Position numbers and translations under genes: made by a program. The notes under the pieces were generated by a model. That model was not told the DNA's origin. It did no database searches and saw nothing but the letters and a program-made list of their open reading frames with translations. DNA of 64,000 nucleotides from the IMG/VR virus record IMGVR_UViG_3300009826_000001, positions 1-64,000 of that record, one strand, 5' to 3'. This DNA is from a virus (lineage: Duplodnaviria > Heunggongvirae > Uroviricota > Caudoviricetes). Shown piece after piece: positions 19,817 through 60,622 of the stretch. The stretch's first letter is position 1, and each line of letters opens with the position of its first letter.

Positions 19817-19820
19817 AGGG

Positions 19821-26911: not shown

Positions 26912-26936
26912 GTGTGGCTACCGATACCCTTAACTC

Positions 26937-27323: not shown

Positions 27324-27347
27324 ACATCGACACGGACAGACCAGCCG

Positions 27348-27827: not shown

Positions 27828-28084
27828 CGACTGCCATCAGCACTCCCGAGGGGCCCGTCGACACCGTCAACTACAGCACCCCCGCTCCCGAGGACGGGAC
27901 GATCTACCAGCGCGACCCGGCCACCGGCGACGTCTACATCGTGGCCGTCTTCGACCGCAACCCCTACAGCACCGGCCGTGGCGAGGGCGGCTGGTGCAAC
28001 CAGACCATCCCGCCGCAGGTGCCACCGCGCACCCCGATTTCGGCGGGCTACACGATGGTCGACGGAAGCTGGACGAGTGGCTGA
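27824..28084 (+). CDS. hypothetical protein (86 aa)
   Basis: ORF track. Confidence 0.45.
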   Translation: MTTAISTPEGPVDTVNYSTPAPEDGTIYQRDPATGDVYIVAVFDRNPYSTGRGEGGWCNQTIPPQVPPRTPISAGYTMVDGSWTSG

Positions 28085-34671: not shown

Positions 34672-35144
34672 TGGTCGGTGCGGTGATCACGCGGCACTGG
34701 CCGGCCTTGGTGCGCGATGTCCTCGCGCTGGGCTACCGGCCAACCGACCTGTTCACCAAGCTGAGCTTCTCCGAAGTCGCCTGCATCATCATCGCCTCAC
34801 CTCCCAACAGCGCGGTGCGCCATTCCGTCGACAAGGGCTGGAGCCGCGAGGCGCACCTGCTGGCGAACATGGCCGAAGGTGAGGCCGGCATCGCCAAGAT
34901 CAAGGAGCCCTATCAACGGCCCGGCGTGACCGAACGCCAGTCCGACGACCCCACCCAGAACCCGTTCTTCACCGCCGATGCGCTGACCTGGGAGGAATTC
35001 GACCGGCGTGAGAAAGAACGCTACGACCCCAACCGTAAGCACGTGAAACGACCCGGTAGCAGTCATTCCCGGGCGCTGCAGAGCTCGGGCCCCCGCCCGG
35101 TTCCTAAGGTCAACGAACTGAAGTTCGGCAGGAACCGTAAATGA
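34171..35144 (+). CDS. tail assembly chaperone G-T product via programmed -1 frameshift near 34653-34669
   Basis: -1 frame open from 34653 through 35144; G-run CCGGGGGAA in the 17-nt overlap window; T ORF ends 3 nt into the TMP start. Confidence 0.5.
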
Positions 35145-44100: not shown

Positions 44101-45325
44101 TGCGCCCACGCAAGCGGCACTGAACACGGGCAGCCACGCGATCAACTCCGCTGCAAGCAAACTCAACTCGGCCAGCACCAAGCTGTTCGAGGCCACGGCC
44201 GACATCCCGCCGCCGCCCAAGCCTCCTGGCGCCGACGAGCGCGCCGACAAGGACGCGATCAGCCTGGGTCACGGCCTCATCCAGGGCATCTTCGAGGAAC
44301 TGGGCTTCGGCAAAGGGGCCTCGGCGGTGTTCGGCGAGGCGATCACCAGCTGGGGCATCACCAAGATGCTGGGTGCGGGGCTGGACTGGTTCATCGGCGG
44401 TCCCGGCGCGGGCATGTTCGGTGAGCAGGGCGGCCTGGTCCCAGGCAAGGGCAAGCTGTTCGGGTTTGGGGGCGCACGCGGACCGACCGGCCAGAACCTA
44501 GGCGCTGGCTTGGCGCTTGGTTTCGGTGTCCCCAAACCGTTGGTCGAAGCAGGGATGGAGCCCGGCGAAGGCGGTATGCACCCCGGGGAAAACCTGCGGG
44601 GACCAGGACAAGTGGGCAGGCCCGGTTTACCGCAAGTTCTTGGTCCGCTGACCGCGCCTGGTGCCGCGGCTCCCGTTATCGGTCCCAACGGCGGCCCACT
44701 GCCGGTCACGCTGCAACCAGGCCACCAAATTGCGGGGTCACCCGGCGCGCCTGGCAGTACGCCCCAGAACCCGTTGCATGCCGCACTCACGCCGGGACCT
44801 GGCGGCGTGCCGCCTGGTGGCCCTCCTGTCCAGCCTGGTCAAACGCGGGGCTGGTGGCAGCCGTTGCCGGGTGGCGCTGGGCATTATGTGACAGCTGGCT
44901 GGTCGGGTGGCGCTACTGGCGCCGCACCCGACTGGCTCGACCTAGCCGAGGGCGCCGGCGGTGGTGGCCCGGTAACCAGCGTGGGCAGTGCTCTGTTGCG
45001 CACGTTTGCGCCGATGATGCAGCGCCGCCAGCCCTACGATTACGAGGCGCTGCCATATTCACCCGGCAAGATCGCCACAGCCGCCTATACCGCTCCCTCG
45101 TCGCAGTCGCCGACCGTTCCCGGCGGTGGACTGGCCGGTGTGGCAGGTAATTACGGCGGTGTCTCGATCCACAACTACAACCCGACGATGATCGGGCCGC
45201 CCCATTACCAGGTGCCCGGGCAGCTCGGTGACCAGCTGAACAGCGTGCTGACCTCGATAGGCACCCAGCACACTCCGCAACTCGGCGGCGCCGCCGCCGC
45301 TGCCTCATCGTTGCCGGCGGGATAA
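35141..45325 (+). CDS. tape measure protein, 3394 aa, with embedded transglycosylase-like and NlpC/P60 peptidase motifs
   Basis: single uninterrupted ORF directly after G/G-T; YQWGG...DCSGL NlpC/P60 motif near 38175-38240; AVAQHETQWQEPGFMGFGPEATRRGYNYD motif near 37770-37900; C-terminal third Pro/Gly/Ala-rich. Confidence 0.85.
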   Translation: MTAFGTNLWVTVLPALQGLQERFREAGRLAGVAMGYAAGEHVSNALIQHASRAGQSAGAAAATEFGQSFGQGVTGGQAIGQIQSVLTDSFKGFGGKLAADFVADFNNALQGKGLNFGDLMRPMDQLENAMLGPIQRVTEHIPLIGTALREVKADFDTFQAAGIGWLSSLTDIANRYQEIARTIAGQTVNTSAIEQYTGLVRDIMASGALVRVEDLGTAIGRLGNNIRDLDPTQLGELAKNFAQVEEVVGNIDAEKFAGVLSAWQVPATQANETLTMLGNVARDSGQKINATMSEMISAGPALRAMGYDFMQTAMLFSEAAKYGDTAQRAVYAFTHAYKQFIDLNVDPKAGMKQVLENIKAMTESPDPQLERAGVQLAEQVFGQRAAATLVDMLKKGILDAADAMHVPEAFKKEMGETVEQTATLGQEWERVGAQIQAALQPVGTALAGSLAQSTRGISEWLAENQAKILGWGEQITQVVLSGVQHMMSFFGEALQAGATFVNAFKEMVYVGFEAILQPLHGFTELLAKAHVPHFKEMADDLGLIQQKMNQIHDFDAGRFTYNLGTGLKEGADQAENIRQSLVSSTALAQQVLQLHAALRMNIGGQMQEGIEQIRDAAGHLIPPTPDNLELQLKGSAAQHEAAVKAFENVGAGIEFDKDGVLGGKIRRVFALAGHKGLDEALKVFRGEVVNIPVQAVDGSGNVIDADHPLVGGDALGGGDIDVTAVGGLAPVGAVDASGIPRPSGSAFGGQPLPAGQAPATPPAPAADSGEQGRAGTPPPPMPPAFGVPSTSGLVWGDAGPVQTGTLVSWHPDYAGAGAAAGGFGVSEPQRVQLVSMISQLPQAPATGAAPDPGAYRNYLISQAQAAGLSPVEIGMTLAVAQHETQWQEPGFMGFGPEATRRGYNYDADPKGAIDQFIRQYTTRLGQAPGLNRNDPAAVADYIWHTVHGAADPHYGASLMSTYQGIGPTSGPLSPQATQALDHASDTVKGLSAQMPVGFADARSLADQLRGVGYQWGGAGDKVNQFMYDCSGLISEMYKTLTGLPAGPEVKGGPQGGRFTTQTLMDPKQLAALGFVPGYDPTSMFNIGFNAAHVAGSLGTEAQGQLNIESNAPPGYVQVGAGTKGAHDPQFTQFAHLPDWMVRGAGTPTGTPQTIWGTGAAGTQTIPLEAWRGWIAGGKHYPLGVSQASPQLQYLAQIISMIPQFSALQATAQGGGLEFTGEDAQLRALHAELQKSGIPMTEVPGALDVTVPQEHMQRLIYDTISHFTPVGQEVSFGGPGGVNIEPVPAGTAGAPHAPAPPHDMSQGDWAALGAETLLGGLAARFIAWPMIRRIFGMARGLRAGARGVTGGAGFGGAARGAGGGYAAAYWAIKAAEAARQAPRGGSEALRAAGLDVDPISQRLWESGPTFFERISGLDRLRSIASMQQFLNQADMLGEAGYPEGLLPPDLGATGIPSPALVRRAHRIAAGESALRPGFGALELGAGPLGESFRDPVTGQFLPSATWAAGPGGESPYPFDLMSSMSRFQPGQIATWTGMARPTFLDDLAAAQRQFLRLAQLPAESNWLTQLNLAQQPFGAPTYDRYRGLMSTLSQAAPGDILGAVPEAQRMAADAVALARNIGLTFGGAPRSVSARAQELRSLFARGPAATPITGALADIPADIMQRLTGGVAGLPLLTTPEAPAEALIRNIQAMAGQVELRQTMNWLAAEAQALSGAGRQYVMPGVAMPQGLFFQQAQAAEAAIRARMAAGELGAGVEWGIERGPLPEVDPRIYPLPPGEIYPSLGEGYDPTSIATGQQIYGRPLPGGGMSRDYWIEGSGNSWRLHDLRTGGEPLQLGQYRTRKAATEGLRQHLTQVRRAQQEQAIARANEVARRARSLTGMGPALRESTAEVTARISEAVAQAGFGNIPEAAMARVSRFVQDPAEAQLLAQMLGIEPGKVEPIFGPEPPPTPAGMVAEAQAALEAGEAITPKAGEATISKAEAGQTWRRYRPRTAAGEGNFIISGKRGRYTVRDLTERGAERQVGGEYRTVTEARQELEAEVERIHQAALEELRAGLDATRAVQRSRDIADVMGMLETGPAFDTGGFADILRGLQLPAPPAPISIPYPQFPTPAAPVSIPYPQFPAPRPTPLLMPRVRPTPPPVSSETLAGRPILEAVGRMPRAWPSELPAGPPSPAIVASYLDSFQKYWNDLSPIEKYAVSQAHAMGTLPMEDLLAHAGFESAGGWDPGMLSALESAIAPTLTTSVQDVIGAPAAAAAGAPAPAAAAAAPGTYAIGPGALAPEVLATPPRPPAPLAPPGLLSRLLTERPSVSWLPAPVQRALGQLSDLYSRLPAPVRTGLRWGGRALEVGQVAGAGVEAAHGVAEQDTTAEKVGALALTAGGTALLAAAAPELGTFAAVLGAAAGAAQLDELVQRHAPGLVAATQDWTPGAIADRLGAGTRRIFAGALPRFFGPPPTAPPPTQPVAPTGPPAGGPPPPPPGLPSVLGAGGGTPPTVHVVPPPGEEHRWRGIYPAISGMLPGGADWEAQYGGKSGIEQALTAELGSGGMTLAKDIVGGINKLGPTIADLIGAAGKGIVDLARPPSEAERREWGPGSEFGALGKARDEAPVADAVSDAVGDVSDAGVDIVHSVGDAFHSFWFGSPPARPTPKAPPVTPPTKPSDTGGDEDWDSEDFTGPEGVIQPVEAAPKWTVTEGVPQPLAPKDQPDQPGDTGGGGGGGGGGGTTDSGDFDEDDDFTGPEGVIQPAEAPAPQAPAQGGGGPPPPEQQAGGPPPLEQPGGAPGTTPGQPPPTTFTTTPGGSGYGTPVFVTNWPGVGAGTGAAGAPPPAAPAPAPAPAPAPAPAPGAEAPPVAAAAPAAAPPTGAPPEGGPAALAPSPGATAATGPIPAGASPDQMAYGGQPYGPQGPIDLNYFDPYSRYPAMHQRAYRTWLHEYERWQIEVSTRSPQIELLNSELASAKSAYDIEQQKWGAIVARGEAEQRLGHGIDAPTQAALNTGSHAINSAASKLNSASTKLFEATADIPPPPKPPGADERADKDAISLGHGLIQGIFEELGFGKGASAVFGEAITSWGITKMLGAGLDWFIGGPGAGMFGEQGGLVPGKGKLFGFGGARGPTGQNLGAGLALGFGVPKPLVEAGMEPGEGGMHPGENLRGPGQVGRPGLPQVLGPLTAPGAAAPVIGPNGGPLPVTLQPGHQIAGSPGAPGSTPQNPLHAALTPGPGGVPPGGPPVQPGQTRGWWQPLPGGAGHYVTAGWSGGATGAAPDWLDLAEGAGGGGPVTSVGSALLRTFAPMMQRRQPYDYEALPYSPGKIATAAYTAPSSQSPTVPGGGLAGVAGNYGGVSIHNYNPTMIGPPHYQVPGQLGDQLNSVLTSIGTQHTPQLGGAAAAASSLPAG

Positions 45326-45328
45326 GCC

Positions 45329-46432
45329 ATGACCGCCGCCTCGCCCGCCCTGCTCCCCTCCCCGCTGTTCCCGGGGAGCACGACCGCCGCCTACGTGCTG
45401 CCCGAGCTCGACGTGGGCAGCGATTTCGGGGCCCTGCCGCTCACGCTGCGCGGCATGGAGACGCGGTGCGTCTACATCTCCCCGGCTGGCGATCTGTTCA
45501 ACCTGACGGGCCCGATGGCCGGTCTGGAGGGCGTGCGGATCATCACCCAGCTCACCGGCGACCAGTCCTGGCCGATCGAGCAGGTGCTCACCCGCTCGCC
45601 CTACATCATGGGAGCGCGGATCAACCGCACCAACGTGGGCGAACGGCACTTCCAGGCCGGGATCATGATCGGCAGCCACTCCCCGCCGCTGACCGAGTAC
45701 CAGTACCGGATGGCCAACAACCACTGGTGGGCCAGCCAGGACGAGAACAACGACGGCTGGTTCGGCATGTATACCCGGTTCTCGGGATGGCGCTGGATTC
45801 CGCTGCGCATCTTCCAGACAATCAAGACCCCGCAGCGCATCGACCCGACTGCCTTCGGCAACAACGCCGCGGCCTGGGACATCAGCTGGATCGCCCAGCG
45901 GCCGTGGTTCACCAAGGTCGCGCTCTACGACAGCTTCCAGGCCAGCATGGTCACCACCCCCACACTGGCCCCAGCCGGTTCCATCTCGGGCACGCCCGAG
46001 GAAGCCGAGTATTACTGGGGCACCGTGGTGCTGGCCAACCGCGGCGATCTGCCCAGTTGCGCGCAGTTCTTCATCACCAGCCCCGGCCAGGCCATCGTGC
46101 AGGACAACGACTCGCAGCGGCTGGTGGTGCTGCCGCTGACCACGACCAACGTCGGCACTTACATGTGCGACACGGCTCCCGGCGTGCGGACGCTGACCGC
46201 GGCCAATGACCCGTCCGACAACCTGCTGTTCGACTTCATCCGGCAGTCCACCATCCTGGACTTCTTCCTGGGCGGTATCGCCAATGAGGGACTGCCGCTG
46301 GCGATGCAGTTCCAGAACCGCTTCATCTACCAGGTGCCACCGCAGACGGTGTGTTCGTTCACCGTGGGCCACTCCAATCCCGGCGGCGTCATCACGGTGC
46401 TGATGCCCCAGATGTATAAGCGCGGCACATGA
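45329..46432 (+). CDS. minor tail protein (367 aa)
   Basis: position after TMP. Confidence 0.6.
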   Translation: MTAASPALLPSPLFPGSTTAAYVLPELDVGSDFGALPLTLRGMETRCVYISPAGDLFNLTGPMAGLEGVRIITQLTGDQSWPIEQVLTRSPYIMGARINRTNVGERHFQAGIMIGSHSPPLTEYQYRMANNHWWASQDENNDGWFGMYTRFSGWRWIPLRIFQTIKTPQRIDPTAFGNNAAAWDISWIAQRPWFTKVALYDSFQASMVTTPTLAPAGSISGTPEEAEYYWGTVVLANRGDLPSCAQFFITSPGQAIVQDNDSQRLVVLPLTTTNVGTYMCDTAPGVRTLTAANDPSDNLLFDFIRQSTILDFFLGGIANEGLPLAMQFQNRFIYQVPPQTVCSFTVGHSNPGGVITVLMPQMYKRGT

Positions 46433-48420
46433 CCACCGGCACCGGCGTCACCAGCACGGGTCTGGCCGGCCCGCTCATCGGCAGCCTGCAGCAGCTGGTG
46501 GGCAACTTGCGCATCCCGGCGATCCAGTTCAACACCTGGGTCGACTCCCTGCTCAACCTGCCGGAACCGGGCGTGCCCGACCCGCTGACTTCACCGGCCA
46601 GCTGTGCCACCTACCTGTCGGCGCTGCGCCAGGTCACCGTCGAGTCGGGCTATCAGCGTCCGCTGATCCGCATCACTGACGGCAACCTCGAGGTGATGAC
46701 CGAGCTGGAAGGCGAGATCAGCTGCTCGATGCAGGACTTGAGCGCCGACACCGGGATGGTCAACCTCAAGATCAACTTCGACAACTGGCTGGTCGACTGG
46801 ATGACCAACCAGACCATGCCGGTCGAGGATCTCAACCTGCTGATCGACCCGATCGCGAGTAACCCAGACTGGAGAACCCGCTGGGGCGGCAAGATCACCA
46901 TGCTCGACGTCAAGCAGGACGACAAGGGCGTGCACAGCATCGAGATCAAGGCGATGCACTTCCGCGAGCACGCGAAACATCTCCTGGTCGCCGCCAACCC
47001 GATCTTCCCGCCGGAGATCCAGCTTCCCCGGATGTGGGTGCTGCCCGGCCCGATGCGGACCATCGGCTTCATCACTGCGTTCGTCAACCTGGCGCGGCTG
47101 TTCATGCCGGGGTGGTCGACGATCACCAACATCGCCAACCCGGCCGGCTGGATCAACCCAGTCAGCCCTGATGCGGCCCTGAACGTGCTACCGACCTACT
47201 GGCCGATCCAGCCCGCGTTCGTGGATGTGGTGACCGATCAGTCCCGGTGGACCTCGATGGGCGCCAACTGGCAGAACTGGCACGAGGCGTTCAAGGGGAT
47301 GCTCACCGACGCGGGCTGCCAGATGCGCTTCTACACCTACCTGACCACCGACAAGGACAGCCCGAACGTGGAGCTGGCCTCGATCCTGGACCTGGCACCC
47401 GACCTGCTCTCGCTGATGGGCATCGACACCGGCAACCTCGCTGTCGACCTCACCGAGATCGCCGCCCCACAGCGCAACGCGATCTGTGTGGCCTTCGAGA
47501 ACATCTCTGGTGTCACCGGCCCGACCGGCACCGCGGTGGACGGCCTGATCAACACCGTGGCCGTCACACTGGACGACCTGATCACGCCGTTCGCGATCGA
47601 CCCCACCACCGGCAACGTGTTCGACCCGGCGCAGATCCTCAACGGCGAGCCGGTGGAATCGGCGACCGGGCTGGGCCAGACCTACCTGTTCGAGCAGCTG
47701 CTCGGGGTGGCGCCGGCGCCGCCCCAGGTGATCTGGTGGGACGGCTACTGGAACGGTCTGATGGAGACCGAGCTCATCTGGAACAAGGGTGGCGTCAAGA
47801 CCATCATGACTGGGGGCAAATCGCCCACGCTGGTCAACTCCGCCATCGACTTCTCGATAAAGTACGCGCTCGCCCAACTATCGGCCGTATTGGACGAATG
47901 GCTGGGCGTCGCGGATTTCTCCGGCGTCATTCAAACACCGGGCACTCCGGGTTTGGACAATCTCTACAATGGACAGCTCGACAACACAATTTTAGCCTGG
48001 GAACGCTATACCGATCCTTTGCGCGCTTTATACAGCGGGGACATGGCGTGGCAGGAGCACTTCGAAAAGGGCTCCGGTACGGCCTACGTGCTGGCCAGCA
48101 TCCTCACGCTGCGACTGGGCGACTGGAATACCAACCCCTATGCGGCGTTCAAGGCCAAGACGATCGACGGCTATCCCTGGATCGCCAACGTCGATTATCA
48201 CGTCGGTGATCGTGTCGGTTTTGAGCGCAACGGAATTATCTGGGTCGATAATGTCATGGGAATTACCCGGGAATGGGACTGGGAAAAGCCGCTCACCACC
48301 ACGGTGAAGATCGGCGACGACAAGCGCAAGGGCGACCCGATCGCGGCCGCGTTTCACACGATGGAGAACCTCTACACATTCGTGGGAACCCTGGCCGGAC
48401 AGGGGACACTGTTCCAGTGA
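46429..48420 (+). CDS. minor tail protein (663 aa)
   Basis: ATGA overlap; position. Confidence 0.6.
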   Translation: MTTGTGVTSTGLAGPLIGSLQQLVGNLRIPAIQFNTWVDSLLNLPEPGVPDPLTSPASCATYLSALRQVTVESGYQRPLIRITDGNLEVMTELEGEISCSMQDLSADTGMVNLKINFDNWLVDWMTNQTMPVEDLNLLIDPIASNPDWRTRWGGKITMLDVKQDDKGVHSIEIKAMHFREHAKHLLVAANPIFPPEIQLPRMWVLPGPMRTIGFITAFVNLARLFMPGWSTITNIANPAGWINPVSPDAALNVLPTYWPIQPAFVDVVTDQSRWTSMGANWQNWHEAFKGMLTDAGCQMRFYTYLTTDKDSPNVELASILDLAPDLLSLMGIDTGNLAVDLTEIAAPQRNAICVAFENISGVTGPTGTAVDGLINTVAVTLDDLITPFAIDPTTGNVFDPAQILNGEPVESATGLGQTYLFEQLLGVAPAPPQVIWWDGYWNGLMETELIWNKGGVKTIMTGGKSPTLVNSAIDFSIKYALAQLSAVLDEWLGVADFSGVIQTPGTPGLDNLYNGQLDNTILAWERYTDPLRALYSGDMAWQEHFEKGSGTAYVLASILTLRLGDWNTNPYAAFKAKTIDGYPWIANVDYHVGDRVGFERNGIIWVDNVMGITREWDWEKPLTTTVKIGDDKRKGDPIAAAFHTMENLYTFVGTLAGQGTLFQ

Positions 48421-49094
48421 CGACCTACAAAGAGCGCAATCCCCGGCGCCGCGGCAGCCAGCCCAACCGGGATTCCAAGTACGCCTTCCCCGGCTCGAAC
48501 CCCTACGCCCGGTCCAGCCACGCGCCGTTGCTGGAGTTCGGCGAGTGGGGCGAGCTGACGCCCAAGACGATCCAGCAGGCCGGCCTGACCGGCGAAGCCC
48601 GCAAGCGCGCCCAGGAGCTGCTCAAGGTGCAGGCCGCCTACCTGGAGATTTACCAGGCGCTGGACTTCCCCAACGATCCCGAGGGCAACGTATGCGATCT
48701 GTCTGGCGCGCACATGACCCAGCCCAAGATCGCGATCGCCTGGACGCTGGCCCTGCTGGGCTTTCGGCGCACTGGGCGCGGCTACATCAAGAAACGCCAC
48801 TACGACGTGCCCGGCGTCTACGACAACGCCTACTACTACGTCGACTCGCGCGCACCCGACGAGGCGTTCGAGGAACTGCGTCCCGAACACCGTTCTGGCG
48901 ACTACAAGCTGCCACCGGACACCCGCCGGCTGGCCGCGATGCGCGACGGCGAGGAGCCCATGCAGTTCCCGCCGGGCTGGGCGGTCAAGCCCGAGGTCAA
49001 CATCGAGTACATCGACCGCGACGAGTACCGCAAACGTTGCGCGACCGAGAACGCGGAGCGCCCGGAATCGGGCAGTGAGGATGAGCAGTCATGA
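48417..49094 (+). CDS. hypothetical tail-region protein (GTG start, about 225 aa)
   Basis: GTGA overlap with upstream stop; in-frame continuation of ORF 48273..49094. Confidence 0.5.
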   Translation: MTTYKERNPRRRGSQPNRDSKYAFPGSNPYARSSHAPLLEFGEWGELTPKTIQQAGLTGEARKRAQELLKVQAAYLEIYQALDFPNDPEGNVCDLSGAHMTQPKIAIAWTLALLGFRRTGRGYIKKRHYDVPGVYDNAYYYVDSRAPDEAFEELRPEHRSGDYKLPPDTRRLAAMRDGEEPMQFPPGWAVKPEVNIEYIDRDEYRKRCATENAERPESGSEDEQS

Positions 49095-50326
49095 CCAGCA
49101 CCCTGATCAACATCCCCGCCGCCACCACCTACGCGCCGGCCAGCAACCAGACCTCGACGGTCCCGCAGATCGGCTCGATCCTCTACATGGCCAGCTACCT
49201 GTTCCAGCTGGCGCTCTCGAGCGAGATCACCCCGCCCGACACGCCGAACATGTACTCGGGGCGCCTGGAGATCATGGGCGATCCCGGCGCGATCGACCTG
49301 TCGCCGCTGATGGGCCCGCAAGGATTTCCCGGCGATGCTTCATTCGCGCTCAGGCGCCAGGACACCCCGGTGGTCAACAGCATCGACGAGCTGCCGACCA
49401 ACCTCACCGACACCACTACCGACATCGGCAAGTATTGGCAGATCGCCACCATCACGGGCGGCGTGATCACCGCCGTGTGGTCCTACGTCTGGTACGGCGA
49501 CTCCTGGCGGGTGCTGCAGATCGGCACCTTCGGCCCTCCCGGTCCCACCCCGGAGATTTCGGTGGCGTGTGAGGCCATCCCGCCACAGAAGCTGCCGACT
49601 TACCCCGACACCACCAGCATCGTGCAGACCAGCGGGGATGCCCTGGACCCGTCGTGGATCTTCCAGCTGGCGGTCCCGGCCGGCCCACCCGGTCCGGTCG
49701 CCGCGGTGGCGACGTTCCCCGACGTGGACGAGACCAACATCGCCGTGATGGACGTGCTGGCGTTCTCCGGGCATTACACCGACCAGGCCAAGCCGATCTT
49801 CAAGCCGTTCTCACTGACCGGCTACGCCTGCCAGTTCTACAGCGTGCCGCAGTCGATCTTCCAGTCCTACTCCGGGTTTGCCCAGCAGGCGTTCATCGGC
49901 AGCTACGCGCTGCCGCCGCAGAACTTCGAGTGGACGCCGATCGTGTGGGGCCACATCGGGGAGGGCGGCGCGATGCTGTCCACCAGCCCGTTCACCGTGG
50001 GCTGCCAGGTGCTGCTGGGCTCTGACACGATGAACACCGGCTCGAACCCCAACGCTGGCCAGCTCATCGCCCGCGGCATCGGCAACACGCTGGGCGAGGT
50101 CAACATCGTCCCGCACTACAGCTACTCCCCCTACACCGGCACCACGCTGACGCCCGAGAACGGCGTGGCGGTCGTTCCCGCTCAACACACCGGGGACGAG
50201 GGCACGATTTTTCTCAACCTTTGGAACGATGGTTTATATGGCGCCTACAACTTCCAGCCGACCAACGCGCAGCTATTTGTGCTGGTGGTGCCCGTCGATC
50301 TGGCTGCCAGCATCCAGCCGTGGTGA
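49091..50326 (+). CDS. minor tail protein with collagen-like GPxG motifs (paralogue of 52031..53833)
   Basis: MGPQGFPGD, GPPGPTP; conserved C-terminal region shared with 52031..53833. Confidence 0.6.
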   Translation: MTSTLINIPAATTYAPASNQTSTVPQIGSILYMASYLFQLALSSEITPPDTPNMYSGRLEIMGDPGAIDLSPLMGPQGFPGDASFALRRQDTPVVNSIDELPTNLTDTTTDIGKYWQIATITGGVITAVWSYVWYGDSWRVLQIGTFGPPGPTPEISVACEAIPPQKLPTYPDTTSIVQTSGDALDPSWIFQLAVPAGPPGPVAAVATFPDVDETNIAVMDVLAFSGHYTDQAKPIFKPFSLTGYACQFYSVPQSIFQSYSGFAQQAFIGSYALPPQNFEWTPIVWGHIGEGGAMLSTSPFTVGCQVLLGSDTMNTGSNPNAGQLIARGIGNTLGEVNIVPHYSYSPYTGTTLTPENGVAVVPAQHTGDEGTIFLNLWNDGLYGAYNFQPTNAQLFVLVVPVDLAASIQPW

Positions 50327-52030: not shown

Positions 52031-53833
52031 ATGACCAGTGCCACCACCACCACAACGACGTCGGCGATCGCCGCGGTCGGCGATACCAGTTTCCTGGCGA
52101 ACTACCTGATCAACGCGCGGCTGTACGCGGTGGTGGTGCCACCGGGAGCCGAGCAGGAGTTCGTGGCGACCTTCGAGGTCAACGGCAGCCAGGGCACGCT
52201 GACGATGGCGGCGATGATCGGCCCGCAGGGTCCCAAGGGCATCGACATGTTCGCCCTCTACCTGCAGACCGACGACATCGAGACACCGGCCGACCTGCCG
52301 ACCACCCTGCAGGACACGGTGGCTGACCAGGGCAAGTTCTGGGTCTTCGACGACGTGGACAACCTGGGCAACATCATCGGCTCCTCGGGTTACATCTGGT
52401 TCGGTACGGGCTGGCGCCGGATCATGATGGGCACCCCCGGTCCTCCCGGGGTTGTGCCGGTGATCACCCCCAGTGTGGCGCTCGTGCCACCCACCGAGGA
52501 CTCCGAGGTCATCCCCGGCGGCACGGCGGCGTTCCCCACGATGGAATTCGACCTGGCCGCACCGGCGGGCCCACAGGGACCGGGCGCCGCGCTCGCGGTG
52601 GCACCCGACGTGGACCTGACCACTAACCCGCCAGTCGTGGGTGACGTGCTGGGCTGGACCGGCGCGTACACCACCGACACCGCACTGATGAGTCCCACCA
52701 GCCTGACCGCGGTGCTCACCAGCGCCGGCTCGCTGGTGGCCGGCAGCTACAGCTATGTGGTCACCGCCGTCAACAGCTCGGGAGAGTCCACCCCGTCCAA
52801 TGAGGTGAGCGTCACCCCGGCCTCGACCGGCGCGGTGGGACTGGCCTGGTCGACCGTGGTCGGCGCGACCAGCTACAACGTCTATCGCGGGAACACCGCC
52901 GGCGGCGAGAACCTCAACCTGGCCAGCGTCACCACCCCGGCCTACACCGACGACGGCACGGCCACCGGCACGGCGGCCACGCCGCCCACGGTGAACAGCG
53001 CGACCACCCAGTACCCGATCTGGGTTCCGGTCAACGTCAGTGAGCTGATCCCCGCTCCCTTCTCCATGCCGGAGAACGCCTTCTCCAGCTACACCGGGCT
53101 TTCCCAGCGCGCACCGATCGGCTCGTTCGCGCTGCCCGCGCAGCCCTATGCCTGGACCCCGATCGTGTGGGGCCACATCGGCGCGTTCGGCATCGAGCTC
53201 TCGGCCAACCCGCTGATGATCGGCTGCGAGGTGCTGCTCGGCGACACCACCACGGGCCAGCTGGTGGGCCGTGGCTTCGGCAACACGCTCGGTGAAGTCA
53301 ACGTGATGCCGCACTACTCCACGCCGTCCATCCCGGCGCAGGCGATCAGCCCGACCAACGACCTGGCCGTGGTCCCGGCCAACCACACCAACCCGGCCCA
53401 AGGGACGGTCTACGTCAACCTCTACAACGACGGCGACATCGGGATCTATATGTTTTCCCCCACCGACGCCCAGCTGTTCGTCATGGTCATCCCCGTCGAC
53501 CCGGCACCGACCACCGGCTCGGGCGGCTCGGGAACCACCGGCGCGCCGACAGCCACCCCCAGCCTGCTGACCTCCATCGAAACCCTGCTCAGTGGCCTGC
53601 TGACGCTGGACCCGACCACCATCTCGGCCGACCTTTCCACCGTGATCTCCACCCTGCAGGGCTTCCTGGGCGGCGCGGTCGCCAACATCACCACGATCCC
53701 GACCACCATCGTGACCTCGATCCAGTCGGCATTGAGCGGCGTGACGAGCCTGTTCGACCCGACCACCATCACCACCGACCTTGCGGGCGCGGTGACTACG
53801 GTGCAGAACTTCCTCACCAGCATCGGCTTATAG
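52031..53833 (+). CDS. minor tail protein with collagen-like motifs and FN3-like insert
   Basis: IGPQGPKGID, GTPGPPGVVP; SYSYVVTAVNSSGESTPSNEVSVTPA...SYNVYRG FN3-like; C-terminal homology to 49091..50326. Confidence 0.6.
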   Translation: MTSATTTTTTSAIAAVGDTSFLANYLINARLYAVVVPPGAEQEFVATFEVNGSQGTLTMAAMIGPQGPKGIDMFALYLQTDDIETPADLPTTLQDTVADQGKFWVFDDVDNLGNIIGSSGYIWFGTGWRRIMMGTPGPPGVVPVITPSVALVPPTEDSEVIPGGTAAFPTMEFDLAAPAGPQGPGAALAVAPDVDLTTNPPVVGDVLGWTGAYTTDTALMSPTSLTAVLTSAGSLVAGSYSYVVTAVNSSGESTPSNEVSVTPASTGAVGLAWSTVVGATSYNVYRGNTAGGENLNLASVTTPAYTDDGTATGTAATPPTVNSATTQYPIWVPVNVSELIPAPFSMPENAFSSYTGLSQRAPIGSFALPAQPYAWTPIVWGHIGAFGIELSANPLMIGCEVLLGDTTTGQLVGRGFGNTLGEVNVMPHYSTPSIPAQAISPTNDLAVVPANHTNPAQGTVYVNLYNDGDIGIYMFSPTDAQLFVMVIPVDPAPTTGSGGSGTTGAPTATPSLLTSIETLLSGLLTLDPTTISADLSTVISTLQGFLGGAVANITTIPTTIVTSIQSALSGVTSLFDPTTITTDLAGAVTTVQNFLTSIGL

Positions 53834-53843
53834 GCAGCTGGTC

Positions 53844-56800
53844 TTGGCTGGGGCGATCGACCTCTACGCCGGCAGTCCCTCGATTGCCGGCTCCAACCTG
53901 TTCCAGATCGACCACAACCCGCTGGATCAGCTCGACCAGGGCATCCAGGACGTCATCGGGCAGGGCTCCTCGGGGCTGGGCGCCAACATCCTGACGGCGA
54001 TCGAAACCGTGGCCCAGGCGATCATCGACACCATCCTGGGCCTGCCGATCGACACGCCACTGAACTTCTCCACCGACGTCAACGCCGCGCTGGGGATGCT
54101 GGGCAGCTTCATCGACAACCTGCTCACCTTCCTGGGCGATCTCAACCCGCTGGACCCGAACTTCCTGTCCAACATGGAGCAGTACGCTGCGCAGTTCATC
54201 GAGTCCATCCTGGCGCCCACCGGCATCTTCGATCTGGCCCAGCAGATCATCGACGCGCTGACCGGCGAGAGCAACTCCTCGATCTCTGGCCTGCTCACCT
54301 GGCTCGACGGCTTCTACAACGCGCTGACCGGCGGCGCGTCCTCGACGCTGGCCGGCGTGGAGAGCTTCTTTACCAACCTGCTCTCACTGTTCGGGCTGTC
54401 CGGCTCGGCGCTGACCGCCTCGGGCTTTGATCCGTTGACGGCGATCGAAACCTTCATCACCGACATCCTGGCGCCCAACGGACTAACCACCCTGATCACG
54501 AACCTGATCGGCAGCATCAGCACCGACCTGGGTGCGGTATGGGCGGCGATCACCGGGATCGCCGGGGCGACGGTCACCGACGTTCAGACCCTGTTCTCCA
54601 ACCTGGCGTCGCTGTTCGGCATCGACCTGTCCAGCCTGAGCAGCGGCACCTTCGATCCGCTCACGGCGATCGAGAACTTCATCACCAACATCCTGCAACC
54701 GAACGGCCTGACCGACTGGATCACCAACCTGCTCTCGGGGCTCGGGATCAGCGCCAGTGGTATCAGCGCGACCGTGCTGACGGACTTAGAAAGCATCATC
54801 GGTGACATCGGCTCGCTTTTGACCGGCGCGAACGTACCGGCGCTGCAGACCGTGATCGACGACTTGCAGTCCGTGATCGACGCGCTCACCGGCGGGACCG
54901 GTGTGATCGCCGACATCACGACCACGATCACGGATGCGATCAGCAGCGCGGCGTCCCTGGCCCAGGGCATCATCGACACGCTGACCGGCAGTGCAGCAGG
55001 CACCGGCACACTCGGTGATCTGGTCACGTCGGTGCAGAGCATGGTCAGCAATGCCGTCAGCAGCGCCGTGAGCACCCTGACATCGCTGGTCCAGGGCGTC
55101 ATCGACACGCTGACCGGAGCTGCCTCGGGCACCGGGACACTGGCCGACCTACAAACCTGGCTGGCCAACCTGCTCTCGATGTTCGGGGTCAACCTGACCG
55201 ACCTGACCAGCGGCACGTTCGACCCGCTGACCACGATCGAGAACTTCATCACGAACATCCTGGCGCCCAACGGGCTCTCGACCATGCTCGACAACCTGCT
55301 GTCCTCGCTGGGCATCTCGAGTAGCGGCATCAGCGCCACCGTGCTCACCGACCTGTCGTCCATCGCCAACGAGATCGGGTCGCTGCTAGGGATCTCCAAC
55401 ATCCCCGATCTGCAAACGCTGGTAGACACCCTGACCGGCGGCTCGGGATCGGCGATCAGTGCCGTCGCCAGCATCCCGGCCGCGATCGGCGGGGTGATCG
55501 ACACTCTGATGCAGGGCTGGGGCGCCACCGGCTCGGGCTACACGCTGGCCGACCTGCTCAACGCGGCGATGAGCATCCCGTCGCAGGCCGTGGCCGGCGT
55601 GCTGGGCGGCACCAACATCGGCACCGCGATCGAGGGTGTCATCGACTCGGCCGTGCAGGCGCTGTCCAACGACGCCACGTCGGCCGGCAACGGCCTGTCG
55701 GTGTTCACCAACCTGCTCAACGACCTGTCCAACATGCTCGGGTTCAACTCGACCGGCGCGGCACCGGCGGGCTCGCTGACCGCGATCGCGCAGACCAACT
55801 CCGAGTTCATCAACCAGCAGTCGGTGACTCAGCCGCTGTCGGCCAACGTGGACCCGACCACCGACGCGGTGTTCCCGCTGTCCAACCTCGCCAGCCTGGG
55901 AACTCCGGCCTCACTGCCGCTGGTCGCACTCACCGCCGCCAACAGCGTCGTCGGGTTCATCTCCACGGTGTACGGCGGCGTCAAGGAATCCATCGACTGG
56001 ATCGGCTACCCGCAAGGCGGCAGCATCGCCGGGATGACCGGGCTCTACCTCAACATCTGGTCGATCAACACCACCACCGGCGTTCCCACGCTGGTGTGGC
56101 AGACGCCCGCCAGCATCCTCAACCAAGTCTCCATCGACACCAAGCCGGACTGGAACGCGCTGAACCTGCCGACCGCCAACTTCATCAGCTCGGTGCAGGG
56201 CGCGATCTACGCCGTCGAGATGGTGCTGACCGGATCAGGGCAGTACAACGTGGTCGGGATGGCCAACGCGATCCCGGCCAAGACCGGCGTCATCCCGGCG
56301 ATGATCGGTGCGCAGCGTGGTGGCGCGACGGCCACCGCGCCTAACAGTCTGCCGGTCATCGGCACCGCGCCCAGCTTTGTCTACGACGCCTCGACCCCGT
56401 GGTTCGGGATGAGCGGCACGGCAGGCCAGACCCAGTACGTGCCCAACCTGGTGCAGCTGTCCACACCGGCCGGGCCCACCTCGATGGTCAACCCCGCGGT
56501 GAGCAACGGATGGGCGAACTACTTCGACATCGTGGTCTGCGGTGCCGGTGGCGGCGGGTCCTCCGGCGGCCTGGTTACCGGAGGCGACGGCGGCTCGGCG
56601 GGCCTGTGGGCGGCGGCGACGTTCACCAGGGCCCAGATGGGCACGGCCAACATCACCGTGCAGGTGGGCGCCGGCGGTGCGGGTGGTCAGGGGCCCGGTC
56701 AGAACGGGGGCAGTGCGGGCACAGCGAGCTACGTCAGCGTGCCAGGACAGGCCACCATCACCGGCGCGGGCGGCGCGGGCTGTGACAACGAGAGCGGAGG

Positions 56801-57020
56801 GCTCACGGCCGGCGCCGGTGTGGAGGCCGGCAACTACCCGCACAACACCGCACACGGCGCGACGAACACCTACTACGGCGGCCTGGGCGGCGCGACCGGG
56901 CAGACCTACGGGGCGCAACCCGGCGGTGGCGGCGCAGGGGGAAACGCCGACATCTACGGCTCATATATCTCCGGTGGCAACGGCGGCCCCGGTGTGGTCT
57001 TTATCCTGGCATATCAATAG
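53844..57020 (+). CDS. large tail fibre-like protein with about 75-aa internal tandem repeats and Gly-rich C-terminus
   Basis: repeats LxxLFGxxLxxLxSGTFDPLTAIExFITNILxPNGL at about 54361, 54587 and 55150; C-terminal GGGGSSGG...GAGGAGGQGPGQNGG. Confidence 0.6.
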   Translation: MAGAIDLYAGSPSIAGSNLFQIDHNPLDQLDQGIQDVIGQGSSGLGANILTAIETVAQAIIDTILGLPIDTPLNFSTDVNAALGMLGSFIDNLLTFLGDLNPLDPNFLSNMEQYAAQFIESILAPTGIFDLAQQIIDALTGESNSSISGLLTWLDGFYNALTGGASSTLAGVESFFTNLLSLFGLSGSALTASGFDPLTAIETFITDILAPNGLTTLITNLIGSISTDLGAVWAAITGIAGATVTDVQTLFSNLASLFGIDLSSLSSGTFDPLTAIENFITNILQPNGLTDWITNLLSGLGISASGISATVLTDLESIIGDIGSLLTGANVPALQTVIDDLQSVIDALTGGTGVIADITTTITDAISSAASLAQGIIDTLTGSAAGTGTLGDLVTSVQSMVSNAVSSAVSTLTSLVQGVIDTLTGAASGTGTLADLQTWLANLLSMFGVNLTDLTSGTFDPLTTIENFITNILAPNGLSTMLDNLLSSLGISSSGISATVLTDLSSIANEIGSLLGISNIPDLQTLVDTLTGGSGSAISAVASIPAAIGGVIDTLMQGWGATGSGYTLADLLNAAMSIPSQAVAGVLGGTNIGTAIEGVIDSAVQALSNDATSAGNGLSVFTNLLNDLSNMLGFNSTGAAPAGSLTAIAQTNSEFINQQSVTQPLSANVDPTTDAVFPLSNLASLGTPASLPLVALTAANSVVGFISTVYGGVKESIDWIGYPQGGSIAGMTGLYLNIWSINTTTGVPTLVWQTPASILNQVSIDTKPDWNALNLPTANFISSVQGAIYAVEMVLTGSGQYNVVGMANAIPAKTGVIPAMIGAQRGGATATAPNSLPVIGTAPSFVYDASTPWFGMSGTAGQTQYVPNLVQLSTPAGPTSMVNPAVSNGWANYFDIVVCGAGGGGSSGGLVTGGDGGSAGLWAAATFTRAQMGTANITVQVGAGGAGGQGPGQNGGSAGTASYVSVPGQATITGAGGAGCDNESGGLTAGAGVEAGNYPHNTAHGATNTYYGGLGGATGQTYGAQPGGGGAGGNADIYGSYISGGNGGPGVVFILAYQ

Positions 57021-57028
57021 GAGGCGTC

Positions 57029-60000
57029 GTGCCGGGCCAGATCACCTTTGAGGTCATCGCCGTCCAGTCCGTCACGGCACCCTTCGACGGCATCGGCGGC
57101 TTGTCGAGCTTCTTCACCCAGGGTGCCGCCGCACCGTTTAGCGCCGAGGGCTCCCTGGACGCGTTGCAGACGGCGATCACCGTGTTCTCCGGCGAGGGCA
57201 GCCTGACGATGGCGCTGCCGACACCGGCGCAGTTCGAGGGCGTAGGAGAGCTGTCCGGCGCGATCGCGGTGCCACTGGATGCCCAATTCGGCACCGAAGG
57301 GCTGCTCAACGACGTACCCTCCGTGGGGGTCAATCCGGTGTTCGGCGCCGAAGGTGTACTCGACGCCGAGATGATCGCCGCGCTGGACGCCCCGTTCAAC
57401 TCCGAGGGCGATTTCGGCGCGATCATCCCCGTGTTCGGTGACGCCGATTTCAGCACCACCGGCACGCTCGGTGTCACGGTCACGACGCTGGCTCCGGGTC
57501 AGGCGCTGTTCGCCGCAGTCGGTCAGCTGGGCGCCGACGTCGAGATGATCGAGTTCCTCGACGGACAGTTCTCCAGCGAAGGCTCGCTATCCGCCGAGGC
57601 GGCCGAGGGCCTTCCGGCCGAGTTCGACAGCACCGGGACGCTGGACGCCGATGTGCTGGCGATCGACGTGGTGAGCGCGCAATTCAGTGCGGAGGGCGTT
57701 TTCACCCCGGCTCCCAGCGCGGGGATGGATGCACAACTGCCCAGTTCCGGGCAGTTGTCGGTCAGCATCCTGGCCGTCGCCATCGTCGCAGCGCAGTTCA
57801 ACGGCGAGGGGCAACTCGACTCGGCCCTCGTCGAGGTGATCGCCGCCGAGTTCACCGCTTCTGCTTCGCTGGCTGCCGCGGTGGTTGAGCGCGCCGAGAG
57901 CGACGGCATCTTCAGCGGTGAGGCCGCGCTGGACGGGATCTCGGGTGCGGCCCTGGACGGCGAGCTCGACGGCGCCGGCCAGCTCAGCCTCGTGGTCGTC
58001 GCCGGCATGGGAACCGCAGCGCCGTGGAGCGGCGAGGGGTCGCTCGCGGCGGTGGTGGTACCGGCGGCTGCTGGCGCGTTCGCTGGGACCGGCTCGCTGG
58101 ATGCGGCCGTGGTCGGAGTCGGCCAGGCCGAGGCGCTGTTCTGCACCGTCGGTGAGCTGGGGTGCATCGTCACGCCTCGCATCGCACTGACGGCGCAGTT
58201 CACCGGAGGGGGCCAGCTGGGCGCGGCGGCGTGGGCGGGTATCGACGCCAACTTCTCCAGTGAGGGCACGCTGATCCCGCCGCGCAACCCGTACACGATT
58301 TACATCGCCGACCAGGGGTATTACACGCTAAACAGCTGGGACGGCTTTGTTTACACGACGCTGGCCGGTCCTGCCGGCGCTGGAGGCTACTACCTCGGAC
58401 CCGCTTATATGGGCTCCGACCTTAGCACCGGCATGGTCTATATGGCCGACTATTTCTACCCGTATCAGATCATCACCTGGGACGGGGCAACAGTTGGAGC
58501 GATATTGGGCGGCCTGGACACCCCTGGGGACCTGAACTACCCCAACGGTGTCGCTGCGGCCAACGGTCTGGTGTACGTCGCTGACACGCAGAACTACCGG
58601 ATCGTGACCTGGGACGGCGCCACCGAGGGGGTACTGCCGCTCACGTTGGCCGGTCCCACCGACGTGGCCGTTGACAGCAAGGGCGTTCTCTATATCGCCG
58701 ATAGCTACGGCCACGCCGCGTACTCCTGGGACGGCACCACACAGCAGCCCCTGCCGCTTCCGGACGGGTTTAGTCCTATGACGCTGGCTACAGACCCGCA
58801 GGATAACGTCTACTTCCTTGCCACTTGGCCCTTAGGTGTGCAGAAGTGGGACGGATCGACCATGCAGGATGTCGAGATCCCCGGCATAACCGCCAACTCC
58901 GGAGGTGGTGGCATCGGAGTTGACCCCGGTGGCCTCCTCTACATAGCCGACAGCAGCAACAACCGCATCGTGACCTGGGACGGCACGACGCTGACCCAGC
59001 TCCCAATCCCCTCGACTTCTTGGCCCGTTGGCCTGGCGTTCCTGCCGACAGTTCCTGCGGTAGTGGGCATCATGGCGCCACGTGAGGCCGCTGCCGAGCT
59101 CTCCGGCGTGGGCACTCTCTCAGCATCCACGGTCCCGTCCACGAGTCGCTCGGGCGCGCTGAGCGCCACCGGCACGCTGGCCGTCACCGTGGTGGCCAGG
59201 CAATTCGCCGCGCCCGCGTTCTCGGGCGGTGCGTCGCTGCAAGCCACCGCGTCCCCCAAGAGGGCCACCAATGCGGGACTGAGTGCCAGCGGGACTCTGT
59301 CGAGCACGGCCTCGGGCACGGTGACCTTCCAGCCCTTCACCGTGGAAAACACCAACCTCTACGGCCAGCCCGTTCCGGCCGGCGCAGTCGGCTGCTACGT
59401 CACCCTGATCGGCGGGGGTGGTGCCGGAGCGACTAACAGTGGCACCACAGCCGGCGGCGGTGGTGGTGGCGGTGGGATGATCACCCGCACCTGGATTCCG
59501 GTGGCCTCACTGGGATCGACGTACTCGGTGGAACGGGGAGGTCCCTCTGTCTCGCCCGGGACCGGGGGAGGGCCATCCTGGTTCACCTCGGGCTCGGTCA
59601 GTCTCTATGGCAACGGCGGTAGCGGAGGCGGCGATCCGACGGCTGGTGCTGGAGGCACCACCAGCGTCGCGGGAATTACCGCGACGGCATTGACGGGCGG
59701 CGCTGGAGGAACCGGAGCCGGTAGCGGCAACGCAGCCCCTGCTGTGTCAACGGGCGCGCCTGGCGGTGGCGGTGGCGGCGGTCAGTCCAGCGTCGGGGGC
59801 GCCGGCGGCAGTAGCGCAACGGTAGCTGGCGGAGCAGCAGGAGCCGCGTCAGCCGGTGCCGGTGGCAGCCCCGCCGCCTCCGCGGCCGGTAACGGGGGAG
59901 CCGGCGGCGGAGGCGGCGGCTCGTCTCTGTCGACCGGAGCCGGTGTCGGTGGCGCGGGGGGCGCCTACGGCGGAGGAGGCGGCGGAGGCGGCGCAGCTCT

Positions 60001-60622
60001 GTCGGGAAACGCCGGGGTCGGCGGCCTTGGCGGCACCGGCTACACGCGCGTGGAGTGGGTGGATGAGACGGGTGCTCCCCCGTCCTACGCTGACACGTTT
60101 GCTCGCGCCAATGCCACCACCCTGGGCAGCGACTGGATAAATATCAGCGGAACCATGATCATCGACACCAACCGGGCCATCGGCGGGACCACGTCAACCA
60201 CCTGGAACCTTGCCCGTTACTACGCGCCCGCGCCATCCGACGACATGTTTGCCGAGGCCGACTGGGGTTCTACCGACATCGCCAACAACTCGGCTTACAT
60301 CATGATCGGGGCGAACAGCACAGATACCGACTGCGCGATGCTTTATAACTGGAACAACCAGTATTTGTTCCTGAACACGTTCATCAACAACACGCAGACC
60401 CAACGCGCCTCGTGGGCAGGCGATCCCTCCGGTCATGTCCGGATTCAGCGCGTCGGCAACGTCTACACCGCCTTGGTTAATGGCACCGCGCGCGTCACCT
60501 GGACCGACAGCAGTAACGTGCTAACCCGAGACGTCAACCACCGCAACTTCGTCATCGGGTCCGACCGCAAGTCATCGACGGGCTACGGGTACCTGCAGAA
60601 CTGGACGGCGGGAACGCCATAA
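57029..60622 (+). CDS. giant tail fibre-like protein: FxxEGxL repeat array, NHL β-propeller, Gly-rich module, C-terminal lectin-like domain
   Basis: about 18-20-aa periodic repeats (AxFxxEGxL) from about 57100 to 58300; NHL-like blades (LVYVADTQNYRIVTWDG etc.) from 58380 to 59000; CYVTLIGGGGAG...GGGGGGGMITRTWIPVASLGSTYS. Confidence 0.65.
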   Translation: MPGQITFEVIAVQSVTAPFDGIGGLSSFFTQGAAAPFSAEGSLDALQTAITVFSGEGSLTMALPTPAQFEGVGELSGAIAVPLDAQFGTEGLLNDVPSVGVNPVFGAEGVLDAEMIAALDAPFNSEGDFGAIIPVFGDADFSTTGTLGVTVTTLAPGQALFAAVGQLGADVEMIEFLDGQFSSEGSLSAEAAEGLPAEFDSTGTLDADVLAIDVVSAQFSAEGVFTPAPSAGMDAQLPSSGQLSVSILAVAIVAAQFNGEGQLDSALVEVIAAEFTASASLAAAVVERAESDGIFSGEAALDGISGAALDGELDGAGQLSLVVVAGMGTAAPWSGEGSLAAVVVPAAAGAFAGTGSLDAAVVGVGQAEALFCTVGELGCIVTPRIALTAQFTGGGQLGAAAWAGIDANFSSEGTLIPPRNPYTIYIADQGYYTLNSWDGFVYTTLAGPAGAGGYYLGPAYMGSDLSTGMVYMADYFYPYQIITWDGATVGAILGGLDTPGDLNYPNGVAAANGLVYVADTQNYRIVTWDGATEGVLPLTLAGPTDVAVDSKGVLYIADSYGHAAYSWDGTTQQPLPLPDGFSPMTLATDPQDNVYFLATWPLGVQKWDGSTMQDVEIPGITANSGGGGIGVDPGGLLYIADSSNNRIVTWDGTTLTQLPIPSTSWPVGLAFLPTVPAVVGIMAPREAAAELSGVGTLSASTVPSTSRSGALSATGTLAVTVVARQFAAPAFSGGASLQATASPKRATNAGLSASGTLSSTASGTVTFQPFTVENTNLYGQPVPAGAVGCYVTLIGGGGAGATNSGTTAGGGGGGGGMITRTWIPVASLGSTYSVERGGPSVSPGTGGGPSWFTSGSVSLYGNGGSGGGDPTAGAGGTTSVAGITATALTGGAGGTGAGSGNAAPAVSTGAPGGGGGGGQSSVGGAGGSSATVAGGAAGAASAGAGGSPAASAAGNGGAGGGGGGSSLSTGAGVGGAGGAYGGGGGGGGAALSGNAGVGGLGGTGYTRVEWVDETGAPPSYADTFARANATTLGSDWINISGTMIIDTNRAIGGTTSTTWNLARYYAPAPSDDMFAEADWGSTDIANNSAYIMIGANSTDTDCAMLYNWNNQYLFLNTFINNTQTQRASWAGDPSGHVRIQRVGNVYTALVNGTARVTWTDSSNVLTRDVNHRNFVIGSDRKSSTGYGYLQNWTAGTP

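Follow-up and report, generated by a model that had tools for sequence, protein, structure and literature searches.

Tail spikes and fibres decide the host range of mycobacteriophage-type phages and are targets of re-engineering for therapy. Electron cryo-microscopy (cryo-EM) resolves only the first 60–100 residues of most central fibres, and their long helical extensions are poorly understood. Here we ask what kind of protein is encoded by an open reading frame (ORF) at 53844..57020, on the + strand of a 64,000-nucleotide (nt) stretch of tailed-phage DNA (positions 1 to 64,000 of the IMG/VR record IMGVR_UViG_3300009826_000001; hereafter the window), and what its internal repeats may be for. 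An earlier reading of the letters alone (the sequence-only reading) had proposed a tail protein of 1058 amino acids (aa) with tandem repeats of about 75 aa and a Gly-rich terminal domain. The ORF is exactly as it was drawn, running from a TTG start to a TAG stop, and the start is supported because the homologues share it, all relatives opening with M-A-G-A-I-D-L. The protein's C-terminal 510 aa form a head already known from gp29-type spikes, gp29 being the tail spike of mycobacteriophage Bxb1 (PDB 9d93; Freeman et al. 2025, as cited in PMC13243192 and PMC13252515), while the N-terminal half carries diverged copies of a helical unit. We consider it likely that the gene encodes a tail spike or central fibre of the gp29 type whose helical stalk has been expanded by duplication of this unit and which bears a binding head at its tip.

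Repeats of the N-terminal half

A BLOSUM62 self-dotplot of the protein gives long diagonals at offsets of 75, 189 and 264 aa; a fourth diagonal, at 43 aa, is shorter. The copies behind them, named R1 to R3 for the long repeats and S1 and S2 for two shorter ones, were scored by local alignment against 500 composition-preserving shuffles, none of which reached the observed scores: 186 for R1/R2 (z 20.7), 175 for R1/R3 (z 19.6), 332 for R2/R3 (z 37.2) and 121 for S1/S2 (z 15.1). The likeness extends to the DNA, where copies are 71–79% identical over 85–241 nt and blastn aligns R2 with R3 at E 6e-30. Self-comparison and alignment statistics, which the sequence-only reading had itself suggested as checks, therefore bear out its claim of at least three long repeats, and the starts it gave for them (54361, 54587 and 55150) lie 8–12 codons inside the units as we delimit them.

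The layout is less regular than a tandem array. A degenerate first copy, R0, occupies aa 82–160 (54087..54323, + strand; FLGDLNPLDPNF...FIESILAPTG...IIDALTG); it matches the hidden Markov model (HMM) of the family over aa 82–130 with 40 bits, is weak to an HMM built from this protein only (independent E 6e-4), aligns with R1–R3 at z 3.4–6.6 and is the counterpart of the first unit copy in all relatives. It is followed by R1, a short 75-aa copy (aa 161–235; 54324..54548, +) seen by dotplot, alignment and HMM, and by R2, a full-length copy of 117 aa with five predicted helices (aa 236–352; 54549..54899, +). The second full-length copy, R3 (110 aa, aa 425–534; 55116..55445, +), begins 189 aa after R2, and the gap is filled by two 43-aa half-copies, S1 (aa 357–399; 54912..55040, +; ...LAQGIIDTLTGSAAGTGTLGDL...) and S2 (aa 400–442; 55041..55169, +), which account for the offset-43 diagonal; the end of S2 overlaps the start of R3, and a weak unit-HMM match (aa 387–424) straddles the S1/S2 junction. 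The proposed 75-aa tandem period thus holds for R1 and R2, which are the only adjacent pair, but not for R3, and the true repeat unit is ~100–117 aa.

The short IDTLTG and IDALTG strings, previously taken for spacers between repeats, turn out to be part of the unit: the motif [ILV]D[AT][LI][TML][GQ] has seven occurrences, compared with 0.02 expected from shuffling, and an alignment of 25 units from many proteins places IDxLTG in the last helix of each. Tandem Repeats Finder reports only trivial 9–15-nt arrays, the copies of the helical unit being too diverged for it to detect. That the repeats merely reflect a common composition, with no shared origin, has practically no probability left: the region is indeed biased, 69% of it being L, S, G, T, A or I, and a 52-aa unit profile, too short for a database of that size, finds nothing significant among 5.8 billion proteins, but this reading is refuted by the shuffle scores, by the collinear alignment of 25 units over 75–117 aa, in which F, P, G and D recur at conserved sites, and by the similarity of the DNA.

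The unit is the property of a family. An exhaustive HMMER scan with aa 1–560 recovers only 54 proteins at E<=1e-3 among 1.84 billion representatives, and those representatives that were looked up are all metagenomic. By the unit HMM they carry between 1 and 12 copies, most often 2, usually repeating every 98 aa; the unit described here aligns full length with the 98-aa unit of the relatives (FDP..ENFIT), and with four copies and two half-copies the protein stands at the high end. What follows the units varies among relatives: 'IPGLDASKI' repeats occur, some proteins contain a segment that we take, from its sequence, to be a domain like a carbohydrate-binding module (CBM), with β-structure, and the C-terminal heads are either Gly-rich or of the DUF7257 type.

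The copies are old. Synonymous divergence (dS) between them is 0.7–1.2, the ratio of non-synonymous to synonymous divergence (dN/dS) is 0.28 for R2/R3 and 0.56–0.66 for the other pairs, and the longest exact DNA word common to any two copies is 19 nt. Three other assemblies are base-for-base identical to the window over 8.6–9.2 kb at this locus. Recent or recombination-prone repeats can therefore be rejected, and the units are old duplications kept under selection and not a hypervariable array; since the copies are diverged, share so little exact sequence and sit in a gene that is identical across assemblies, there is no sign of ongoing change in the number of helical units. Near-identical versions of a relative likewise have equal numbers of units. 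Repeat-mediated change of stalk length does occur in the family, in another type of repeat: two relatives that are 97–99.5% identical, L011 and L014 (metagenome contigs Ga0306920_100049833 and Ga0306923_10051939), differ by a clean in-frame indel of 153 aa (aa 236–388 of L011), bounded by 'IPALPAGWGKTIDG' repeats and located just downstream of the helical units. It is plausible, as had been suggested, that repeat number could set fibre length.

As to the fold of this half, an AlphaFold2 (AF2) monomer model is helical throughout aa 17–658, with a predicted local distance difference test score (pLDDT) of 40–76. A model of a single unit, built from the alignment of 25 units, has five helices (aa 244–257, 272–284, 289–299, 309–326 and 332–349 in the numbering of the full protein) at pLDDT 68 and a predicted template modelling score (pTM) of 0.36. 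Because confidence is low, only the secondary structure of the stalk is to be trusted. The unit helices are amphipathic, with conserved positions that are mostly hydrophobic and heptad-like; Fourier analysis of hydrophobic periodicity peaks at 3.25–3.75 residues, which fits helices and cannot separate a coiled coil from a bundle. The modular fibre shaft of the sequence-only reading is therefore right as to modularity, with its 1–12 copies and varied downstream modules, but the shaft is predicted to be all-helical and not of the classical β-structured kind. A classical β-structured or collagen-like shaft is rejected on that ground and by the absence of any match to a repeat family in Pfam or NCBIfam. 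The stalk is preceded by a conserved module of ~45 aa (53844..53978, +; MAGAIDL[FY][AS]GS..G.NLF.[IV][DN][KH].PL..L..G[IV].DV[IV]G), which is common to nearly all 54 family representatives and has 12 invariant columns across 19 relatives.

The C-terminal half and its likeness to solved spikes

From aa 546 onward the protein enters better-known territory. It comprises a helical neck (aa 546–660; 55479..55823, +), at which the homology to gp29 begins (gp29 aa 119 onward), a β-sandwich domain (aa ~690–888; 55911..56507, +), whose strands are modelled by AF2 with pLDDT mostly 82–94, and a terminal polyglycine-rich domain (aa 889–1056; 56508..57011, +). The AF2 model of aa 690–1058 as a whole, a β-sandwich followed by the Gly-rich domain, has pLDDT mostly 82–97. 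The Gly-rich C-terminus noted earlier stands: glycine makes up 31% of aa 890–1058, and Pfam PF21722 (Gly_rich_2) matches aa 889–1056 with 56.9 bits against a cut-off of 24.3, over profile positions 12–225 of 226. In the model this domain (pLDDT mostly 83–97) contains short strands and coil only, by DSSP. Foldseek relates it to two chains of Bxb1 gp33 (9d93_Qa, E 3e-8; 9d93_Qb, E 2e-7) and to the fibre of cyanophage Pam3 (7ypx_A; E 2.6e-6), and Gly-rich domain proteins in BFVD reach TM-scores of up to 0.72 to it. The profile of PHROG 346, a minor tail protein family, covers aa 523–1058 at E 1e-52. A tblastn search returns 467 mycobacteriophage records, and all 40 matches listed fall within aa 560–938 of the protein at 25–29% identity, in minor tail proteins, while BFVD structure matches include many minor tail proteins of Mycobacterium and Gordonia phages, with E down to 6e-30. 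The identity as a tail protein, claimed from the sequence alone, is now well founded, because the gene lies in a minor-tail block, has minor-tail PHROG matches and encodes a C-terminal half that matches gp29.

The closest comparison is with gp29 itself. BLASTP aligns aa 546–939 with gp29 aa 119–477 (25% identity, E 1e-8), phmmer against PDB sequences finds 9d93_Pa, 'Tail spike, gp29', in three chains at E 1.1e-4, and the top Foldseek match in the PDB is again 9d93_Pa (E 3.2e-24 over 648 columns). The global root-mean-square deviation to this chain is poor (32 Å), as expected for a flexible multi-domain model. The helical neck, the β-sandwich and the polyglycine-rich C-terminal region are homologous in the two proteins, and gp29 is encoded four genes after the Tal protein gp25, just as the gene described here lies downstream of Dit and Tal. 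The proteins part company at the N terminus. Whereas gp29, at 617 aa, has ~118 aa before the homologous part, this spike has 545 aa; its extra N-terminal stretch consists of a different module and the repeated helical unit, and gp29 has no match to the unit HMM. No significant alignment was found between aa 1–545 and gp29, and hence no sign of homology to the gp29 anchor.

The overall plan resembles that of other central fibres, which in mycobacteriophages begin with a helical anchor at the N terminus and continue as a long helical extension (PMC13252515); in phage Jabs the extension measures ~250 Å and ends in a polyglycine-rich domain, as stated in a preprint (10.64898/2026.07.24.740622). 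Douge gp20 (PDB 8zdp) matches our protein in Foldseek at E 1.5e-10, and in their published descriptions Douge gp20, Claus gp20, Corndog gp61 and Jabs ORF65 all have a short N-terminal anchor under the hub and a long, poorly resolved helical or coiled extension, with distal carbohydrate-binding and/or polyglycine-rich domains. Despite this likeness, their anchors and stalks show no sequence similarity to ours, the order and number of distal domains differ, and the passages of these papers that were consulted contain no mention of a ~100-aa internal repeat.

Similar architectures also occur with no trace of the unit. Barnyard gp36 (1028 aa) and a Hawkeye protein (968 aa) are close to the spike in length and predicted architecture, and their models match over the full length in Foldseek (E 5e-29 and 9e-27), but neither has BLASTP similarity at E<=1, internal repeats by the dotplot criterion or a unit HMM match, and Barnyard gp36 has a CBM-like insertion that is absent here. 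Phage S16 shares the polyglycine domain (the C-terminal 168 aa of our protein match PF21722); there, however, a separate adhesin carries it at the end of a β-structured long tail fibre, whereas here it is fused to a β-sandwich and a helical stalk. In Bxb1, both gp29 and the wing brush protein gp33 contain polyproline-II/polyglycine bundles, as described in PMC13243192.

Proposed architecture and competing readings

We propose the following arrangement. The N-terminal ~45-aa module would be a baseplate anchor, by analogy with the Claus, Corndog, Jabs and Douge central fibres, and would dock the protein, probably as a trimer, onto the Dit–Tal hub (encoded at 45329..48420), presumably its attachment site. 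It would be followed by an all-α-helical stalk of ~600 aa, in which a unit of ~100 aa, with about five amphipathic helices, has been multiplied by old duplications; the stalk comprises four copies, two half-copies and the neck, and these duplications would make it ~430 aa longer than that of Bxb1 gp29. Such a stalk, in extended form, may act as a spacer or arm that keeps the C-terminal domains away from the baseplate. The β-sandwich and the terminal polyglycine-rich domain would be the likely binders of the host envelope; polyglycine-rich domains have been discussed as possible lipid or host binders in PMC13252515 and in the Jabs preprint.

Several observations weigh against this arrangement. 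No similarity to gp29, Barnyard gp36 or any PDB chain could be detected in the N-terminal 545 aa, so that the attachment site and the oligomeric state are drawn by analogy only. The stalk is modelled with the low confidence given above, which fits an extended rod as well as helices folded back into compact bundles, and the window encodes other candidate fibres at 49091, 52031 and 57029, the last with a Gly-rich stretch of its own. The phage, moreover, is uncultured.

The same features could describe a lateral (side) fibre, attached to Dit or another baseplate protein in six or more copies around the tip, in which the repeats would still form an arm. By sequence, the N-terminal module and the N terminus of gp29 are unrelated, the gene lies six or seven genes downstream of Tal whereas the analogous Barnyard gp36 directly follows Tal, and several other fibre-like proteins are at hand in the window. 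We nevertheless regard a side fibre as unlikely, although it is the strongest of the alternatives: the C-terminal 510 aa are homologous to a tail spike, gp29 itself does not directly follow Tal in Bxb1, and at the loci of three homologues, which have the same order of tape measure protein (TMP), Dit, Tal and minor tail genes, the homologue holds a similar place, three to six genes after Tal and directly ahead of the lysis genes.

A more ambitious reading, which we judge decidedly unlikely, treats the 45-aa module and the ~100-aa five-helix unit as an undescribed stalk module whose hydrophobic and acidic helices, lacking Lys and Arg, would be more than a passive spacer: they would be adapted to engage or traverse the mycolic-acid outer membrane, and the number of units would be tuned to the thickness of the envelope or capsule.

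We give less credence again to the idea that the units are docking platforms for accessory tail proteins, such as the neighbouring Gly-rich protein with NHL repeats, with one accessory copy bound per unit; this would be quite improbable. It would account for purifying selection on the units beyond the apparent need of a simple spacer, and the next gene does encode a large multi-domain Gly-rich protein. There are precedents in Bxb1, in which polyglycine-rich domains are 'associated with the CFP' according to PMC13252515, and separate gp33 'wing brush' domains are placed on the tail tip by PMC13243192. The conserved positions of the units, however, are mostly the hydrophobic, heptad-like ones, and helix packing alone can explain them.

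Very improbable, finally, is an envelope-active stalk, whose hydrophobic and acidic helices, free of Lys and Arg, would during infection enter the mycolic-acid outer membrane or pass through it in the manner of a tape measure or penetration device. The composition invites the thought. The 1058-aa protein has only five basic residues (K714, K767, K813, R825 and R929), none of them in aa 1–713, its net charge is −64, and the grand average of hydropathy (GRAVY) of aa 1–660 is +0.57; K+R amount to 0.5%, compared with ~2% in relatives and 5.8% in Bxb1 gp29. There are also weak matches to the tape-measure families PHROG 58 and PHROG 305 (E 7e-5 and 1e-3), and tomography of Douge (PMC13033339) reports a central fibre that penetrates the outer membrane. 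Yet there are no convincing transmembrane segments: only four hydropathy windows exceed 1.6, marginally, and none of them lies in the repeats. Depletion of K and R is not specific to the repeats, either, but common to all distal tail genes here, with 1–2% in those at 49091, 51104, 52031, the spike gene and 57029 against 10–14% in terminase, portal and capsid. The PHROG matches may reflect composition, and BLASTP of the spike protein against the TMP and neighbouring tail genes of the window gives nothing significant. That the protein is itself a TMP was rejected, the matches being weak and the true TMP lying at 35141–45325. The gp29-type spike with an expanded stalk thus remains the reading that we prefer.

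Genomic setting, distribution and meaning

The + strand of the window carries a siphovirus structural operon, with terminase from 15881, portal from 18452, prohead protease from 19752, major capsid protein from 24512, major tail protein from 33499, a TMP of 3394 aa at 35141–45325, a Dit-like distal tail protein at 45329–46432 and Tal, a hub of the lysin type, at 46429–48420 (Pfam Sipho_Gp37, 137.7 bits). Several minor tail genes come next, followed by the spike gene, so that the latter lies inside the minor-tail block. Directly after it, at 57029–60622 (+), a 1197-aa protein combines NHL repeats (a Pfam match of 61.6 bits) with ~450 aa of degenerate repeats, each ~20 aa long (F.[GS]EG.L.A...), a poly-Gly stretch at about aa 800–1010 (PHROG 754, minor tail) and a C-terminal domain that matches PHROG 2804. 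This protein probably also binds the host, as a second one beside the spike. Upstream of the spike gene, 49091–50326 and 52031–53833 encode paralogous minor tail proteins, both of PHROG 1565 and with a short collagen-like GPQG motif near the N terminus, the second being ~200 residues longer than the first.

G+C content is high throughout, at 62–71% in 2-kb windows, and reaches 0.90 at the third codon positions (GC3) of the spike gene. An ORF of 314 aa on the − strand inside the repeat region (54584–55528), which also has a GC3 of 0.90, shares its third codon positions with the spike gene; it was rejected as a gene, being a shadow ORF typical of high-GC DNA. Similarly, the 475-aa ORF at 26914–28341, with 16% Arg, almost no acidic residues and no PHROG match, is probably an out-of-frame artefact of high-GC sequence and not a gene. 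Elsewhere in the operon, the prohead protease (19752–22001; Peptidase_S78) is fused to ~550 extra residues that include DUF6582 and is strongly acidic, with 11.5% D and a net charge of −50. Between the prohead protease and major capsid genes, 22004–23356 encodes a 450-aa protein whose predicted sulfotransferase and family-2 glycosyltransferase domains suggest that the virion may be glycosylated and possibly sulfated. Upstream of the structural operon, on the − strand, lies a 570-aa ORF at 6059–7771 that matches PHROG 850, 'RNA-binding protein', at E 1e-91.

The source is a recurrent uncultured siphovirus with a genome of ~127 kb: the identical 1058-aa protein is present on seven contigs from JGI, ENA and Logan assemblies, the two longest measuring 127,488 and 127,506 bp. 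Its capsid protein has counterparts with 43–52% identity in M. abscessus prophages and in M. smegmatis phages, among them Bipper, Typha and Omega. The phage is related to mycobacteriophages, and its host is probably a mycolic-acid actinobacterium in soil. At 1.5 Å per residue, its TMP would predict a tail of ~0.5 micrometre. Some phages that carry the family have ~127-kb genomes and very long tape measures, and at four loci TMPs of 702, 1459, 2415 and 3394 aa stand alongside 2, 2, 3 and 4 helical units, a suggestive hint of co-variation at n=4.

Known phages have so far yielded no relative of the N-terminal half. Against 50,697 phage genomes, a megablast search with the gene returned zero matches, and tblastn with aa 1–560 or with the N-terminal 336 aa of a relative returned none at E<=0.01. 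A scan of IMG/VR with aa 1–560 found no relative, and neither did two scans of 185,579 species genomes for an N-terminal pattern; the latter, which assigned no host, were single-motif searches of limited sensitivity, the first of which needed a leading Met and so would miss GTG and TTG starts. Comparison of the stalk with Pfam (E up to 10) and NCBIfam (E up to 0.1), and of the unit and N-terminal profiles with PDB sequences, gave noise only, and the model of a single unit has no Foldseek match in the PDB. The N-terminal module and the helical unit constitute an uncatalogued stalk module, confined so far to metagenomic contigs, and the lineage that carries it is apparently from soil, judging by sample names.

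In most respects the finding fits what is known of modular fibre evolution, the head being already familiar. Current phage collections have missed the lineage of uncultured phages, apparently from soil, for which the stalk module is a marker. The countable units of this module, of ~100 residues each and present in 1–12 copies, offer a handle for asking whether adsorption to thick, waxy envelopes depends on the length of the stalk.

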